Shown piece by piece: positions 6,561 to 37,574 of a stretch of 64,000 bases of DNA. The stretch's first letter is position 1. The number at the start of each line of letters is the position of its first letter. The DNA lies in the NCBI RefSeq assembly GCF_963974515.1, contig NZ_CAXBDD010000003.1, positions 71,898 to 135,897 of the forward strand, in the 5' to 3' direction. This DNA is from an uncultured Sunxiuqinia sp. Lineage in GTDB: Bacteria > Bacteroidota > Bacteroidia > Bacteroidales > Prolixibacteraceae. The notes beneath the pieces are model-generated. The model had not been told where the DNA came from. It did not search any database and saw nothing but the letters and a program-made list of their open reading frames with translations. The position numbers and the translations under genes are program-made.

Positions 6561-6617
6561 TCTCAGCACCGGTTGAAGGCCGGATTCAATTTTCAATCGA
6601 CCTCTTAGCATAAACGC

Positions 6618-9600
6618 ATGTCAAAACTCAAAATATACAAAGCTTCGGCCGGTTCGGGAAAGACCTTTCGTCTGGCACTGGAGTACCTGAAAATCGCCTT
6701 GGCGAATGAATGGAATTACAAAAATATTCTGGCGGTAACCTTCACCAATAAGGCAACCACCGAAATGAAAGAGCGGGTGATTGAAGAATTGTACGTGCTG
6801 GCTAAAGAGCAGTCTTCGGCTTATTTGCCCATCCTCATGGATGAAATGAAGCTGAGTGCTGTGGAGATTGCTGACCGGGCCAGAAAAAGCCTAAAAAGGA
6901 TTCTGCATGATTATTCCCGTTTTTCAATCAGCACCATCGACAGCTTTTTTCAGCGGGTCATCAAATCCTTTAACCGCGAACTGGGAATCAATGCCGCTTA
7001 CCAAGTGGACCTGGAAGACAACCTGATTTTGGAAGAAGCGGTGGATGAATTGTTGTTATCTATTGAAGACAATCCGGAGTTGCTGGAATGGCTTAAAACG
7101 TTTGCCAATGAAAAGATACGGGAAGGTGGTGGCTGGAACCTAAAGAACGATATTCTGAAGCTTGGCGTACAGATTTACGACGAGACGTTTAAAGCACTCA
7201 ATCAAACCCTGCATGAAAAGATCAACAACAAACAGTTTATCACCAACTATAAAAAGACATTAAACAGCCTGATTTTTCAGTTTGAAAGTACCCTGAAGAA
7301 AATTGGCCGCGCTGGTTTACAGGCAATGCAGCAACACGGGGTTTCGGTCGATGATTTCAAATACAAAAAAAGCGGAGCGTCCACTTCATTTCAGCGGTTG
7401 GCCGATTTCAACCTTGATACCTGGCCGGGAAAACGCGTGGTTGAAGCGGCTGACGATCCCGAAGTGTGGACCACGCAAACCTCGAAGGTTAATGTGAAGG
7501 AAGCTGTGGCGGCCCTCCAACCACTTCTGCAGGAAGCCGTAACTTTCTATTTTAAAAAACTGCATGAATATAACAGTGCCAAGCTCATTACCAGCCAGCT
7601 TTATACGCTGGGAATTTTGGTCGATTTGCAGTCCATGGTGCGCAAGGTGACGCAGGAAAAGGGCGTGGTGCTCATTTCCGAGTCGGGCACTTTGCTAAAA
7701 AAAATCATTGACGATTCGGACGCACCGTTTATCTACGAAAAGACGGGTGTTTTTTACAATCATTTTATGATCGATGAATTTCAGGATACGTCAGGCTTGC
7801 AGTGGGGCAATTTTAGGCCACTGATCACCAACGCACTGTCAGAAGACCATCTGGGAATGGTGGTGGGTGATGTGAAACAAGCTATTTACCGTTGGCGAAA
7901 TGGTGACTGGAATTTGCTGGCAAGCCAGGTTGGGAAGCAGTTTCCAGCCAATGGAGTGGAGGAGGAGACTCTTCAGAAAAACTGGCGAAGTACCGGCAAT
8001 GTCATTCGGTTCAACAACAGTATCTTCCAGATTTTGCCGAAGTTATTTCAGCAAAACATTAATAGTGAGTTGGAAGAGAACCGGCTTAAAGATACCGAAA
8101 TGGCCAGGCAAATTGAGTTGCTGTATGGCGAAAGCCTGCAAGAAATAGCCAATGTCAAGCTGAATAATGAGGGTGCCGTTCGCATGCGTTTCTTTAATAA
8201 GCCCAAAGATCAAGAGAAAGAGGAATTGCTTGAAACAATTTTGGATGAGCTGGTGGAACGGATCCGGGAGGTGCAAAACATTGGTGCGAAGGGGCGGGAA
8301 ATAGCCGTTTTGGTGCGTAAAAAGGATGAAGCCAAGTTGGTTGCAGACCGGCTGTTGCAGGAAAAATCGAAGTCGGATTTGAACTGCAATTTCAATATTC
8401 TTTCAAGCGAGTCGCTGTTTGTTAAAAATTCGCCCGCCGTGGGTTTTGTGTTGGCTTTGCTCCAGTTGCTTGCCGATCCGAACGATGATGTCGCCTTGGC
8501 GCTTGCGAATCATCTATACTACAACGAGCTGTTTGATCAGCTCAAAAGCATTGGCCAGGTGCCCGATTTGTCGATTTCTTCTTCTCCGCAACTGACCCTT
8601 GGATTTGAGGCGCATGAGAAACCGGATAAAACCAGTTGGTTTGAAAAACGAAAGCATGAAAGCAACGTGCTTTCTGACTTCTTATCCAGCGACTATTTTT
8701 CAGAAACGCTGGGCGGACGAAACATTCAGGAGATCGCCTTTAAAATTTCTGAAATCTTTAACCTGTTTAGTCTGAATGAAGAGCTGGCTTACTTACAGGC
8801 CTTTATCGACCAGGTGGCCGAATTTATGGTAACCCGAACGGCCGATATTGCGGCTTTCCTCGGCTGGTGGGATGAACAGGGACATAAGAAAACGGTTGCT
8901 GTTTCCGAAGAGCTGGACGCCATCCGAATCCAAACCATTCACAAAGCCAAGGGTCTGGAGTATAATTATGTGTTTATTCCCTTTTGCGATTGGAAAACAG
9001 ATGTAGCGGCGCAACATGCACCCATTCTATGGTGTCAACCCAAGTTGGCACCTTTTGACCAACTGGAACTGGTACCCGTTAAATTTGAAAAACGAATGGG
9101 CGAATCTATTTTCTTTCAGGAATATTTTCAGGAAAAGATAAGTCATTACATTGATAATCTGAACATGCTTTATGTGGCCTTTACACGGGCACGCACCGCT
9201 CTGTTCACCTGGTCGGTTACAACCGGCAAGTTTGGAAATATGGCCGACGTACTGCATAATGCCATGGAGCTGGCTGATCATTTGCCTTTAAACGCAGCGG
9301 ATTCGCTTTTTTGCAAATTGTCGGACTACTACGATTCAGACAATTCCTGCTTTTCGTTTGGTGAAATTTCTGTCTCATCGAAAAAAGAAAAAGTGAAAGA
9401 AAACGGACTGGTATTGAATGAATTTCGCTTCGCTGATTTTCATAATTGCCTGAACCTGAGAAAACGCAATGAGCACTTTTTTGCAGCCGATCAGTTGACT
9501 TCAACCAAAATAAACAAAGGCCGGATTTTTCATGAAGTACTGGCCCGGATTTCAACCGCAGCGGATGTTGACTTTGCTGTCAGTGAGCTGGTGTTTAAAG

Positions 9601-34396: not shown

Positions 34397-34549
34397 ATGG
34401 CAAAGAAAGCAGTTGCATCATTGCAAAAAGGTGCCGGTAAAGGTTTTTCCAAAGTAATTAAAATGGTAAAGTCTGAAAAAACCGGAGCATTCACATTTCA
34501 GGAAGAAATGATTCCTAATGAAATGGTTAAAGACTATTTTAAGAAGTAA
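34397..34549 (+). CDS. DUF4295 family small protein (50 aa, missing from ORF track)
   Basis: Hand translation MAKKAVASLQKGAGKGFSKVIKMVKSEKTGAFTFQEEMIPNEMVKDYFKK; usual position after rpmG in Bacteroidota. Confidence 0.92.
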   Translation: MAKKAVASLQKGAGKGFSKVIKMVKSEKTGAFTFQEEMIPNEMVKDYFKK

Positions 34550-34571
34550 AGATATTTGTTTGCTTAAACAG

Positions 34572-34603
34572 AAAAGCTTCCATCGATTGATGGGAGCTTT
34601 TTT
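34572..34603. terminator. Terminator after the rpmB-rpmG-DUF4295 operon
   Basis: aagcttccatc/gatgggagctt stem followed by a T-run. Confidence 0.8.
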
Positions 34604-34633
34604 GTTATCCGTCTTTTAGATTACTCATTCGAG

Positions 34634-35404
34634 TCATTCCGGCGATTTCTCCGGCAGAAACTTCCAATACCGCCGGGGCATATGCTGGCGTTGCAGTTTG
34701 TGGTTCTTTCGCTCCTTAATGTTGATGCTGTCAAAGTAATTCTTCCACAATACCTGGTAGCTGGCTTCCTGCTCCTGTAGCAAGTTGTGATTGACCTTCC
34801 CGTCCAGGCGGGAAAAGGTCTTCTCCGAAATCTCCACTTCCCGAACCGTTTTTAGATCGTAATAAAAGCCATAATCGCGTTTCAGGTCGTAAATCAGCCA
34901 CTGTTGATCGGCAAACCGGTTCTTGAAATGCCGGAGGGTAAAGGGCAATACATCGTATGCCGGTTCAACCGGGGCGAAATAAAGGCCATCTTTGGTTTCC
35001 TGGAATCGAACAAACTGAAGCAGGCGAGAGGTTTCCTGCAGGACTTTCCGTTCCAGCTTTTTCAATTGAAGCACATCTGCATCGCCATAATCGGATTCAA
35101 TGCTGAATTTGGTGTCGAACAAACGGCGGACAAAACGAAACAACATCATCTCGATGCCGGGCTCTGCAGACAAGAAAGCCATGAAAGGCAATTCTTTGTT
35201 TCGTTGATGAAGCTTTTGCCTCAAGGCTTTCCAAACACGATTGGCTTGCTGCTCATTGGTTGAAATAACTTGCTTCTCGGTAAACAAGACTTCCTGAAAA
35301 TCAACTTCGCCACAAATGTCAGTTGGCGTAATTTTTTGTTGATAGCACTGAAAAACAACGCTTAACAAGCCTTCGAACGTTCCATCGTAAATTAAATAAG
35401 CCAT
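34634..35404 (-). CDS. TIGR03915-type putative DNA metabolism protein (DUF4130)
   Basis: YDGTFEGLL, FVRF, HFKNRFADQQWLIYD, WKNYFDSINIKERKN..LQRQHMPRRYW. Confidence 0.88.
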   Translation of the reverse strand: MAYLIYDGTFEGLLSVVFQCYQQKITPTDICGEVDFQEVLFTEKQVISTNEQQANRVWKALRQKLHQRNKELPFMAFLSAEPGIEMMLFRFVRRLFDTKFSIESDYGDADVLQLKKLERKVLQETSRLLQFVRFQETKDGLYFAPVEPAYDVLPFTLRHFKNRFADQQWLIYDLKRDYGFYYDLKTVREVEISEKTFSRLDGKVNHNLLQEQEASYQVLWKNYFDSINIKERKNHKLQRQHMPRRYWKFLPEKSPE

Positions 35405-35408
35405 GCTG

Positions 35409-36713
35409 TTAATTCTTAAAATGAAGCTGTTTGGGACCGCACACCGGGCTGGGCTGAGGAGGGAATAGCATCAGCTGGGTATCTCCTGCTTTCCGGCGTT
35501 TCATCTGGCTCTCAGCCAAAATATGATTTTTCAGGCGTTCAGGTTCCCAGCTGACCATTCGTGGTGGCAATTCGTTACATGTAATAAAGTACTGCGCTCG
35601 TTTCATCACTACGCCAATCTTTTTCAAATGAAAGCTGGTCAGTCGTCGAAAACGTCGGGTATCGACAATCATTCGGGCGGATTGCACCCCAATGCCAGGC
35701 ACTCGTAAAATCAGGTGGTAGTCGGCTTTGTTAATATCAACAGGGAACAAGTGTAAGTTTCGGATCGCGAATGCCAGCTTCGGATCAATCTCCAGATCCA
35801 GAAAAAGTCGCTCCGGCGTAAGAATTTCATCGGGCGAAAACTCATAAAACCGCATCAGCCAGTCGCTTTGATACAGCCGGTTTTCGCGTACCAATGGTGG
35901 TGACTGTATAGCCGGAAGCCGTTTGTCGTATTCATTCACAGGCAAATAACCGGAATAATAAACTCGTTTCAGTTTCTGTTGATGATAGAAGTTTGAGGAA
36001 AGCTGAAGAATGTCCCGATCACTTTCGGGTGTGGCACCTACAATAATCTGGGTGCTTTGTCCGGCGGGTGTAAACTTCGGTACCCTGTGAAACTTTTTGC
36101 GTTCTTCTTTATAGGCTTGAATGCCTTCGCTGATTTGGTTCATTGGCTGCAGAACACTTGCGTAATCTTTTTCGGGCGCCAGCTTTTTCAGTTGCAGTTC
36201 GGTTGGTATCTCAATGTTCACGCTCATTCGATCAGCGTATCGGCCGGCTTCATAAATCAGTTCGCGACTGGCTCCCGGAATGGCTTTCAGGTGAATATAA
36301 CCATAGTAGCGTTCCTTCAAGCGCAGTTTTTTGGCTACCAGCATCATGCGCTCCATCGTGTAGTCCGGATTTTTAATTACGCCGGAGCTTAAAAACAAAC
36401 CCTCAATGTAATTTCTTCGGTAAAAACCAATGGTCAGATCAACGATTTCCTGAACGGTGAAAGCGGCGCGAGGGCGGTCGTTGGTTCGCCGGTTAATGCA
36501 ATAGGCGCAATCGTAAATACAATGGTTGGTCATCAAAATCTTAAACAGGCTGATGCAGCGTCCGTCATCGGTAAAGCTGTGGCAAATACCTGCTGCCACG
36601 GCATTTCCAATTCCATCGTTGTTGTTCCGGCTGTTTCCGCTCGATGAGCAGGATACATCGTATTTCGCTGCATCGGCTAATATTTTTAGTTTTTCTTGAA
36701 TGGTCGCATTCAT
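35409..36713 (-). CDS. Putative DNA modification/repair radical SAM protein (TIGR03916 type) with HhH
   Basis: ILADAAKYDVSCSSSG, GICHS, CIYDCAYC (CX3CX2C), GLFLSSG, RENRLYQSDWL, HhH LLRVPGIG-like segment. Confidence 0.92.
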   Translation of the reverse strand: MNATIQEKLKILADAAKYDVSCSSSGNSRNNNDGIGNAVAAGICHSFTDDGRCISLFKILMTNHCIYDCAYCINRRTNDRPRAAFTVQEIVDLTIGFYRRNYIEGLFLSSGVIKNPDYTMERMMLVAKKLRLKERYYGYIHLKAIPGASRELIYEAGRYADRMSVNIEIPTELQLKKLAPEKDYASVLQPMNQISEGIQAYKEERKKFHRVPKFTPAGQSTQIIVGATPESDRDILQLSSNFYHQQKLKRVYYSGYLPVNEYDKRLPAIQSPPLVRENRLYQSDWLMRFYEFSPDEILTPERLFLDLEIDPKLAFAIRNLHLFPVDINKADYHLILRVPGIGVQSARMIVDTRRFRRLTSFHLKKIGVVMKRAQYFITCNELPPRMVSWEPERLKNHILAESQMKRRKAGDTQLMLFPPQPSPVCGPKQLHFKN

Positions 36714-36770
36714 AATCGATAAGCTTGTATGATTCTTGTTTTTTTATTGGCAAACGAGATGATAAAATTA

Positions 36771-36802
36771 CTAATAAAATTAGTAATTACTAATAGGATT
36801 AG
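36771..36802. promoter_or_regulatory. Two tandem palindromic operators CTAA-N5-TTAG (36771-36783 and 36790-36802)
   Basis: ctaaTAAAAttag and ctaaTAGGAttag; the first extends to attactaa-N5-ttagtaat; both lie between divergent starts next to -7 box TATATTTG (36804-36811). Confidence 0.75.
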
Positions 36803-36815
36803 GTATATTTGGTGG

Positions 36816-37574
36816 ATGAATTTTTTAGCACAGAATATCAAGTATTTACGAAAAACAAAGCAGTGGACGCAGCAACAGTTGGCTGATGAACTTCAGATAA
36901 AACGTGCATTGGTTGGTTCGTACGAAGAGGGTAGGGCAACGCCTAAAATCGCCGTACTTCAGCGGCTGGCTGTCTTGCTGGATACGAAATTGGATGACCT
37001 GCTGGGCAGGCCTTTGGAAGAAAAACAAGAAGGCAGGTCACCTTCAGCCAAGGTGTTGTCCATTGTGGTGGATCAAAATAATGAAGAATTGATTCCCATT
37101 GTTCCTGCAAAAGCTTCGGCAGGGTACCTAAACGGTTTTGCTGACCCGCATTATGTGGAGTCGCTGCCTCGCTTTTATATGCCTATTCCCGAATTGTCGC
37201 GCGAACGCACCTATCGTGTCTTTCAGATCAAAGGCGACAGCATGTTACCTGTGCTGCCTGAATCTTATCTGTTTTGTGAATATGTGCCGGATTTGGAAGA
37301 TTTGAAAAATGGACAAACGTATATCCTCATCACCAAAGATGAAGGTCTGGTTTATAAACGTGTCTTTTTGAAAGCTGCCAGCCAGTTACTGCTGAAGTCG
37401 GATAATCCGGAATACGATTCTTATGTAATTGGCTTGGAGCAAGTGTTGGAATTGTGGAAAGCCAAAGGCGTTTTAAGCTTCGAACTTCCAAAGCCCGAAA
37501 TGATGAGATCAGCCCATATTTCGTCTGTTTTGAAGGAAGTGAAGGATGAGATTCGGAAGCTGAGAAATCAATAG
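36816..37574 (+). CDS. CI/LexA-like repressor (XRE HTH plus S24 autopeptidase)
   Basis: HTH NIKYLRK..WTQQQLAD..IKRALVGSYEEGRA; Ala-Gly site ASAG; catalytic Ser GDSM and Lys VYKRV. Confidence 0.9.
   Translation: MNFLAQNIKYLRKTKQWTQQQLADELQIKRALVGSYEEGRATPKIAVLQRLAVLLDTKLDDLLGRPLEEKQEGRSPSAKVLSIVVDQNNEELIPIVPAKASAGYLNGFADPHYVESLPRFYMPIPELSRERTYRVFQIKGDSMLPVLPESYLFCEYVPDLEDLKNGQTYILITKDEGLVYKRVFLKAASQLLLKSDNPEYDSYVIGLEQVLELWKAKGVLSFELPKPEMMRSAHISSVLKEVKDEIRKLRNQ

Follow-up and report, generated by a model that had tools for sequence, protein, structure and literature searches.

What reads the paired CTAA-N5-TTAG palindromes that lie between a repressor gene and a divergent radical S-adenosylmethionine (radical-SAM) gene in an uncultured Sunxiuqinia sp., and what do they control? 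We addressed this question in a 64,000-nucleotide stretch of the genome (RefSeq assembly GCF_963974515.1, contig NZ_CAXBDD010000003.1, positions 71,898 to 135,897), hereafter the window. The first-pass annotation had described two exact palindromes with starts 19 bp apart, interlocking to form a perfect 16-bp palindrome, as a candidate SOS box of Bacteroidota, and all three elements were indeed seen in the sequence. A pattern search of the window revealed a third box, overlooked in that annotation. The best explanation of the whole, to which we assign a probability of roughly 0.88, is that dimers of the neighbouring HTH_3/S24 repressor use the three boxes as operators, which together make up a Bacteroidota non-canonical LexA switch. 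The features concerned are the following.

36771-36783: O1, CTAATAAAATTAG, an exact CTAA-N5-TTAG box
36790-36802: O2, CTAATAGGATTAG, also exact, but with GG in its spacer and an outer flank that is imperfect
36779-36794: inner palindrome, ATTAGTAATTACTAAT, perfect, 16 bp
36677-36689: O3, CTAATATTTTTAG, an exact CTAA-N5-TTAG box within the radical-SAM coding sequence
36816-37574, plus strand: repressor gene, 252 amino acids, with HTH_3 (residues 8-62) and Peptidase_S24 (residues 95-207) by Pfam

The boxes and their repressor family

The plus strand from 36760 to 36818 reads tgataaaattaCTAATAAAATTAGtaattaCTAATAGGATTAGgtatatttggtggATG. Taken with its flanks, O1 is TTACTAA-TAAAA-TTAGTAA (36768-36786), a perfect 7-N5-7 palindrome, and O2 is TTACTAA-TAGGA-TTAGGTA (36787-36805). 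The start-to-start distance is 19 bp and the two extended 19-bp sites abut, so that the right arm of O1 and the left arm of O2 create the inner 16-bp palindrome, which is the O1/O2 junction and not an independent site. The boxes are placed at -45 and -26 of the repressor start codon, in the regulator's own promoter. When scored with a position weight matrix (PWM) built from 96 orthologue sites, O1 gave the highest score of the whole genome (30.2 bits), and O2 scored below 12 bits because of its spacer.

The protein encoded next to the boxes combines a helix-turn-helix (HTH) domain of the HTH_3 family (PF01381, E = 1.3e-11) with a Peptidase_S24 domain (35.3 bits against a cut-off of 23.3). Residues A102, G103, S142 (in GDSM) and K181 were invariant in a 30-sequence alignment, whose members range from 90% to 45% identity to the window protein, and likewise in an alignment of 82 sequences; the predicted cleavage site is Ala102-Gly103, with a Ser142/Lys181 dyad. 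In an AlphaFold2 model (mean predicted local distance difference test, pLDDT, 80.8), residues 4-64 form five helices at the N terminus and are followed by a disordered linker (65-88, with pLDDT below 50 at 71-78), a beta-rich domain (91-220) and a long terminal helix after the S24 domain (227-250, pLDDT about 60-78). The top Foldseek matches were the lambda-186 hybrid repressor, the phage 186 repressor and LexA of several species, and the S24 fold matches the C-terminal domains of LexA and CI, while a sequence search of the PDB with the repressor returned generic HTH_3 domains only. Its nearest relatives are found in Sunxiuqinia (90% identity), Mangrovibacterium, Gaoshiqia and other Prolixibacteraceae, and their NCBI lineage (Bacteroidota, Bacteroidia, Marinilabiliales) fits a Bacteroidota-restricted family. 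A start at 36729, assigned mechanically to the open reading frame, was rejected as an artefact; orthologue alignments begin at the Met of 36816.

Such a family has been described by Sanchez-Osuna et al. (Nucleic Acids Research, 2021; PMC8565304) in Bacteroidetes without canonical LexA, which carry S24 repressors with a CI-like HTH (PF01381). Two clusters of these repressors bind either GGA-N5-TCC or CTAA-N5-TTAG, and in electrophoretic mobility shift assays the Pontibacter actiniarum protein bound to CTAA-N5-TTAG and its own promoter, the binding being abolished by mutation of the dyad or of the spacer length (PMC8565304). This confirms the statement of the first-pass annotation that CTAA-N5-TTAG is one binding motif of CI-derived LexA proteins in Bacteroidetes. 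The same work reports two or more boxes per promoter as common and an additional terminal helix as a peculiarity of the family (PMC8565304). Draconibacterium appears in its list of genomes for comparative genomics, and the RecA tree labels Draconibacterium and Prolixibacteraceae bacterium WC007 'L2_L2_M2' (PMC8565304); Prolixibacteraceae were therefore already covered. The repressor of the window belongs to this non-canonical LexA family, among its CTAA-N5-TTAG members.

The proposed check on conservation in related genomes was borne out when 80 orthologous repressor loci were compared. An exact box lies within -250 to +30 of the repressor start in 50 of the 80, often in tandem at 19 or 21 bp, with at least two boxes in 34, and its position is maintained even where the proteins share as little as 44% identity. 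Where two or more intergenic boxes occur, the final pair is separated by 19 bp in 12 loci (those of the window and of related Prolixibacteraceae), by 21 bp in nine, and by 17 and 18 bp once each; in five further loci the distance is 42 bp and a degenerate box lies in between. The box equivalent to O1 is kept in most orthologous loci, and in L004 and L012 O1 was retained and O2 decayed. The 96 orthologue sites yielded the extended consensus T-A-CTAA-W5-TTAG-T-A.

The arrays also vary in what separates them from the repressor gene. Five loci of one clade (L040, L043, L044, L050 and L070) have an extra small open reading frame (MRNFRSLNIWK...) about 500 bp upstream of the repressor gene, which separates that gene from its boxes and whose product by eye resembles the four-helix-bundle '23S rRNA intervening-sequence protein' family. 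In L026 and L032, the DNA between the boxes and the repressor ATG, close to that start, contains a short sequence repeated in tandem (atccagtatccagcatccaacatcc...) as well as a unit, ccgaggctacggagggcaaagccagcatcc, that recurs.

The comparison also bears on whether the functional unit might instead be the inner 16-bp palindrome (TTAG-N6-CTAA), or whether another factor, such as a repressor paralogue encoded on contig C17, might be the binder. The inner palindrome is perfect and the genome does encode a second HTH-S24 protein. However, every box has an N5 spacer, while the interval from one box to the next varies with the clade (17, 18, 19 or 21 bp), which argues that CTAA-N5-TTAG units are recognised and not the inner palindrome; moreover, the paralogue is only 30% identical to the window protein and its own promoter carries GTTAT-N5-ATAAC, conserved within the genus. 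We thus hold this alternative to be very improbable.

Finally, the frequency of the motif was considered. The window contains three exact copies (O1, O2 and O3), all within 126 bp, against a mean of 0.53 after dinucleotide shuffling, and at the shuffled density three sites in such a stretch have a probability of about 2e-10 per stretch, which excludes chance for the three-box cluster. The assembly (4.57 Mb in 229 contigs, 44.7% G+C) holds 20 exact copies, compared with about 102 expected from base composition, and the motif is thus about five-fold under-represented across the whole genome; the majority of the remaining 17 copies lie within long open reading frames or coding regions. An origin as chance AT-rich palindromes without a regulatory role would draw on the AT-rich intergenic region and on a motif with just eight specified bases. 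It is refuted by the occurrence of three copies of a depleted motif in 126 bp, by their conservation in place across distant orthologues and by codon-level selection on O3, described next, and we give it practically no weight.

The intragenic operator O3

O3 is read on the coding strand as aaa CTA AAA ATA TTA Gcc (K-L-K-I-L-A, codons 8-13), the box itself covering codons 9-13 (CTA AAA ATA TTA Gcc, L-K-I-L-A). It lies 94 bp from O1, centre to centre, or about nine helical turns, and on the radical-SAM transcript as predicted it would occupy roughly +70 to +82. The published box scan spanned -250 to +2, and intragenic boxes are undiscussed there (PMC8565304).

The radical-SAM gene is upstream of and divergent from the repressor gene in 64 of the 80 orthologous loci, and the full O3 motif is kept in 35 of these 64 repressor-linked orthologues; 12 more linked loci depart from it solely by TTG at the second Leu. 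The codon CTA is used at the O3 Leu in 53 of 63 linked orthologues, compared with 9.1% of Leu codons elsewhere in the same genes. As controls served 18 orthologues without a repressor within 1.5 kb and without an upstream box, drawn from a one-genome-per-family sample across the GTDB order. CTA was found in two of the 18 and the full motif in none (Fisher p = 1.8e-8 against the linked orthologues). Since the control orthologues keep the same peptide, usually KLKILA, the difference does not come from protein constraint. Nor does AT-richness of the 5' end explain the choice of CTA, since TTA, the more AT-rich and commoner codon, was used once. Linked loci without any intergenic box (L009, L024 and L052) also lack CTA. 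As judged from codon usage, O3 is under DNA-level selection acting on synonymous codons.

The distances from O3 to the next box in relatives cluster at 51-52, 71-73, 82-85 and 92-95 bp. A periodogram of these distances peaked at 10.5 bp (phase -0.09 turn, R = 0.71 over all loci); on unique distances, from loci that are related and not independent, R was 0.58 (p ~0.01 against uniform random distances). Such phasing is suggestive of helical-face-dependent looping between O3 and O1/O2, and is as would be expected from it.

Predicted promoters and the proposed switch

Bacteroidota sigma-A promoters carry TAnnTTTG at -12 to -5 (PMC9723704), and promoters predicted by this consensus place the intergenic boxes as follows.

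36804-36811, plus strand: predicted repressor -7 box, TATATTTG (TAnnTTTG), 1 nt after O2
36763-36770, minus strand: predicted radical-SAM -7 box, TAATTTTA, abutting O1, with one mismatch to TAnnTTTG
O1: relative to the predicted promoters, -13 to -25 (radical-SAM) and -33 to -45 (repressor)
O2: relative to the predicted promoters, -32 to -44 (radical-SAM) and -14 to -26 (repressor)

On this assignment, the transcription start site (TSS) of the repressor would be 36816, the A of the ATG, and its mRNA would be leaderless, a class that makes up about 5.5% of mRNAs in Flavobacterium psychrophilum (PMC9723704). The radical-SAM transcript would start at about 36758, with a 45-nt leader. The two predicted promoters are near-mirror images, offset by 1 bp, about the palindrome centre at 36786/36787. 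The boxes had been annotated as sitting between the divergent promoters; they do not simply lie between them, and instead fill the core (-13 to -45) of both as predicted. Of 58 orthologous loci, 25 have CAAAnnTA immediately next to the first intergenic box (31 with the first base relaxed), and an exact TAnnTTTG is found 1-3 nt past the proximal operator in eight of 54, all but one among the closest relatives.

The repressor -7 box ends 4 nt before the ATG, and repressor mRNAs are likewise predicted to be leaderless in L001, L002 and L007. Sister genera (loci L003 and L005) have predicted repressor leaders of about 52 nt, and the leader length would therefore have changed within the family.

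These positions suggest how the switch may operate. O1 and O2 would occupy the core of a pair of promoters that overlap back to back. Each box would lie between the -7 and -33 elements of the nearer promoter and cover the -33 region of the more distant one, and the repressor, once bound, would therefore silence both its own gene and the operon of the TIGR03916 radical-SAM gene and its TIGR03915 partner. The conserved spacing points to cooperative binding at O1 and O2, which the first-pass annotation had also envisaged. The repressor would negatively autoregulate its predicted leaderless mRNA, and a third dimer at O3 may add to the repression, whether through a DNA loop to O1/O2 or by forming a roadblock. 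Upon DNA damage, RecA filaments would induce self-cleavage at Ala102-Gly103 by the Ser142/Lys181 dyad, parting the DNA-binding from the dimerisation domain, and both units would be derepressed. The mutagenesis cassette imuA-imuB-dnaE2 would be guarded by the paralogue through a different palindrome.

In phage lambda, CI acts at OR1-OR2-OR3 between the divergent promoters PR and PRM, with looping to the distal OL, a leaderless repressor mRNA and RecA-dependent inactivation. An ordered switch of this type could also be considered here: O1 would be filled first and repress the radical-SAM promoter (box centre at -19), repressor bound at -39 would activate or spare its own leaderless promoter, and the weaker O2 (centre at -20) would be filled at high concentration and cap synthesis, as in the OR2/OR3-PRM logic of CI. 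The box centres, at -39 and -20 when counted from the predicted TSS of the repressor, and the leaderless state predicted for its mRNA agree with such an order, as do the perfect 7-N5-7 symmetry and high score of O1 beside the low score of O2, the loci in which O1 outlasted O2, and the published proposal that the non-canonical LexA family derives from phage repressors (PMC8565304). However, nothing points to activation, the geometry of boxes and promoters differs in other clades (21-bp arrays and long leaders), and the TSS is a predicted one. We consider an ordered switch unlikely, and favour plain repression of both transcription units by the non-canonical LexA protein.

Regulon, paralogue and known systems

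The proposed target operon consists of two genes.

35409-36713, minus strand: radical-SAM gene (TIGR03916), NCBIfam 640.8 bits against a cut-off of 343.5, Pfam Radical_SAM and HHH_3
34634-35404, minus strand: TIGR03915/DUF4130 partner, NCBIfam 263.4 bits, Pfam DUF4130

The TIGR03915/DUF4130 gene begins 4 nt past the radical-SAM stop on the same strand, and its product has no uracil-DNA glycosylase (UDG) domain. DUF4130 has been linked by Aravind and co-workers with SplB-like radical-SAM enzymes and UDGs, and a 2026 preprint predicts that the TIGR03916/DUF4130 pair associates tightly and may have single-stranded nucleic acid as its substrate. In the published family, the repressor is autoregulated and the COG1573-COG4277 UDG/radical-SAM system belongs to the regulon (PMC8565304); the boxed radical-SAM/TIGR03915 operon of the window is a listed member of that regulon.

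The genes flanking the locus are ftsY, rimO and a peroxiredoxin gene, together with open reading frames that by eye look like ribosomal proteins L28 and L33. Weak sub-threshold Rfam matches (leader- or terminator-like, E = 0.01-0.15) at 34543-34627, between the end of the L33-like frame and that of the TIGR03915 gene, probably represent a bidirectional intrinsic terminator between convergent genes. With such housekeeping flanks the locus is chromosomal and not a prophage. The notion that the boxes form the immunity region of a prophage or mobile element, with the S24 protein as its phage CI repressor, could be based on the N-terminal domain, whose best NCBIfam match, below the cut-off, is to phage RstR-type repressors, and on the best fold match, the lambda-186 hybrid repressor. 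It is, however, at odds with these neighbours, which do not mark a prophage location, with the synteny of repressor and radical-SAM gene in 64 of 80 genomes of many families, and with the absence of adjacent phage genes, and we regard it as extremely improbable.

We then asked whether the motif could be used to map a genome-wide regulon, as the first-pass annotation had proposed. No CTAA-N5-TTAG box with up to one core mismatch was found upstream of recA (C16:23791-24816), dinB (C4:102893-103966) or imuA-imuB-dnaE2 (C17:20855-26605), no GGA-N5-TCC was found near recA, dinB or imuA, and no umuC other than dinB and imuB was found in the genome. A whole-genome scan with the orthologue PWM gave high scores for the local boxes only. 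No link to repair was found at the exact intergenic boxes elsewhere (rpe, a large repeat protein and contig C195), and an Rfam search near the boxes returned nothing but one chance sub-threshold match. Hence, the scan did mark the repressor/radical-SAM locus, but it produced neither a box at the classic SOS genes nor a convincing further target, so that what the motif maps in this genome is a regulon of one locus. This regulon looks contracted to the repressor and the radical-SAM/TIGR03915 locus, at least as read from the distribution of boxes, which fits the report that regulon size is variable and very small in some clades (PMC8565304).

A one-mismatch scan of non-coding DNA yielded 34 candidates, and the two near DNA-related genes were compared across 12 same-genus genomes. 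CTGA-N5-TTAG upstream of gyrA was rejected as a target; it is never a consensus box in 11 same-genus genomes. The one-mismatch matches at 'mutY' were also rejected, as they correspond to the coding start and 5' leader of a divergent HU-like gene, and this site is always TTAA-N5-TTAG. The sequence TTAAAATATTTAG (C38, about 6617-6664; L120-L131), one mismatch from the box, is 100% conserved in the 12 same-genus genomes, directly upstream of the start of the HU-like gene, which is divergent from mutY. A role as a signal for HU expression is more likely for this sequence than one as a LexA site.

The paralogue (C17:19978-20790, 270 amino acids) conserves the AG, GDSM and K elements, and its gene is divergent from imuA-imuB-dnaE2 (C17:19978-26605 for the whole arrangement). 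The 64-bp intergenic region contains TTGTTAT-TAATA-ATAACAA, a perfect 7-N5-7 palindrome, and TTGTTAT-ATTTA-TAAACAA, 23 bp apart, and both palindromes, of the GTTAT-N5-ATAAC type, are kept in same-genus genomes (L083-L088). They probably provide a separate operator specificity that guards the mutagenic polymerase cassette. The lack of a CTAA box at imuA is thus explained by its position next to a paralogue with the same geometry and different half-sites, and this divergence is consistent with the report that paralogues often have diverged palindromes of the same dyad-spacer structure (PMC8565304). In other genera, the nearest relatives of the C17 repressor (L089, L090, L092 and L094; 40-45% identity) have GATTA-N5-TAATC upstream, in many cases lengthened to TTTGATTA...TAATCAAA; this makes a third half-site, the N5 geometry being unchanged.

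Several points weigh against a damage-responsive LexA switch at this locus. The consensus used to assign the promoters is short, the radical-SAM -7 box departs from it at one position, and the repressor-side -7 box is exact solely in close relatives. The helical-phasing statistic, derived from related loci, leaves outliers at 89, 112 and 118 bp. A second S24 repressor is present in the genome, and this paralogue may cross-bind to the boxes. Lastly, recA, dinB and imuA carry no box, and the targets do not amount to a recognised SOS network; the label 'SOS box' therefore rests on family membership and not on the local regulon. The missing network limits the designation as an SOS master regulator, not the membership of the family. 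The initial interpretation of the palindromes as operators of this repressor family is nevertheless supported by the published motif, by the architecture and catalytic residues of the protein and by the conservation of the boxes, and is extended here by a third box.

A further, more speculative view combines these elements: the locus may retain a three-operator logic of the lambda type from a phage ancestor, with O1 strong and placed at -39 of a leaderless autoregulated promoter, O2 weaker and placed at -20, and looping from a phased O3, and the 5-N5-5 geometry may have been re-specified at least three times (ACTAA, GTTAT and GATTA) across paralogues. We think this combination unlikely, if slightly less so than the ordered O1/O2 switch discussed above. 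If true, control would be ordered and concentration-dependent, the repair operon being shut off first and repressor synthesis capped later, unlike simple on/off SOS repression, and the re-specified half-sites would insulate separate damage-response modules within one cell.

Overall, the locus is an ordinary DNA-damage switch of a kind known from the literature, met here in a new genome and with some modest additions. A published Bacteroidota SOS box was recognisable from raw sequence, and the locus offers a compact test case with a perfect and a weaker intergenic operator plus an intragenic one. For the evolution of SOS systems it adds an operator in the first radical-SAM codons that is kept by synonymous-codon selection at helically phased distances, a regulon reduced to the repressor and one radical-SAM/DUF4130 module, and paralogues in the same and related genomes that share geometry and differ in half-sites. 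The established picture is unchanged by these additions.

With lambda CI, the locus has in common an S24 repressor whose HTH is all-helical, neighbouring dyad operators at divergent overlapping promoters and a leaderless repressor mRNA (both as predicted here), a distal operator at a helically phased distance, and probably RecA-dependent inactivation. It differs in being a chromosomal locus and not a prophage, in having two proximal operators instead of three and a distal site 94 bp away inside a coding sequence instead of 2.4 kb away, and in lacking a Cro-like antagonist. Canonical LexA (CTGT-N8-ACAG in E. coli, where lexA has tandem boxes) likewise acts through palindromes over damage-inducible promoters, including the repressor's own and sometimes in tandem, and shares the S24 self-cleavage chemistry, but its DNA-binding domain (winged HTH, PF01726, versus HTH_3, PF01381, here), motif and spacer length are different. 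From the Bacteroidetes non-canonical LexA systems, the present locus is distinguished by its one-locus regulon and a radical-SAM partner without a UDG domain, and by the intragenic operator, the apparent helical phasing and the predicted promoter overlap, which are undescribed in the published account (PMC8565304). With these same systems it shares the motif, the N5 spacer, the HTH_3 domain, the Ala-Gly site, the Ser/Lys dyad and the C-terminal helix, as well as a box in the repressor's own promoter, a COG4277 radical-SAM target, multiple boxes per promoter and two paralogues per genome in Prolixibacteraceae.

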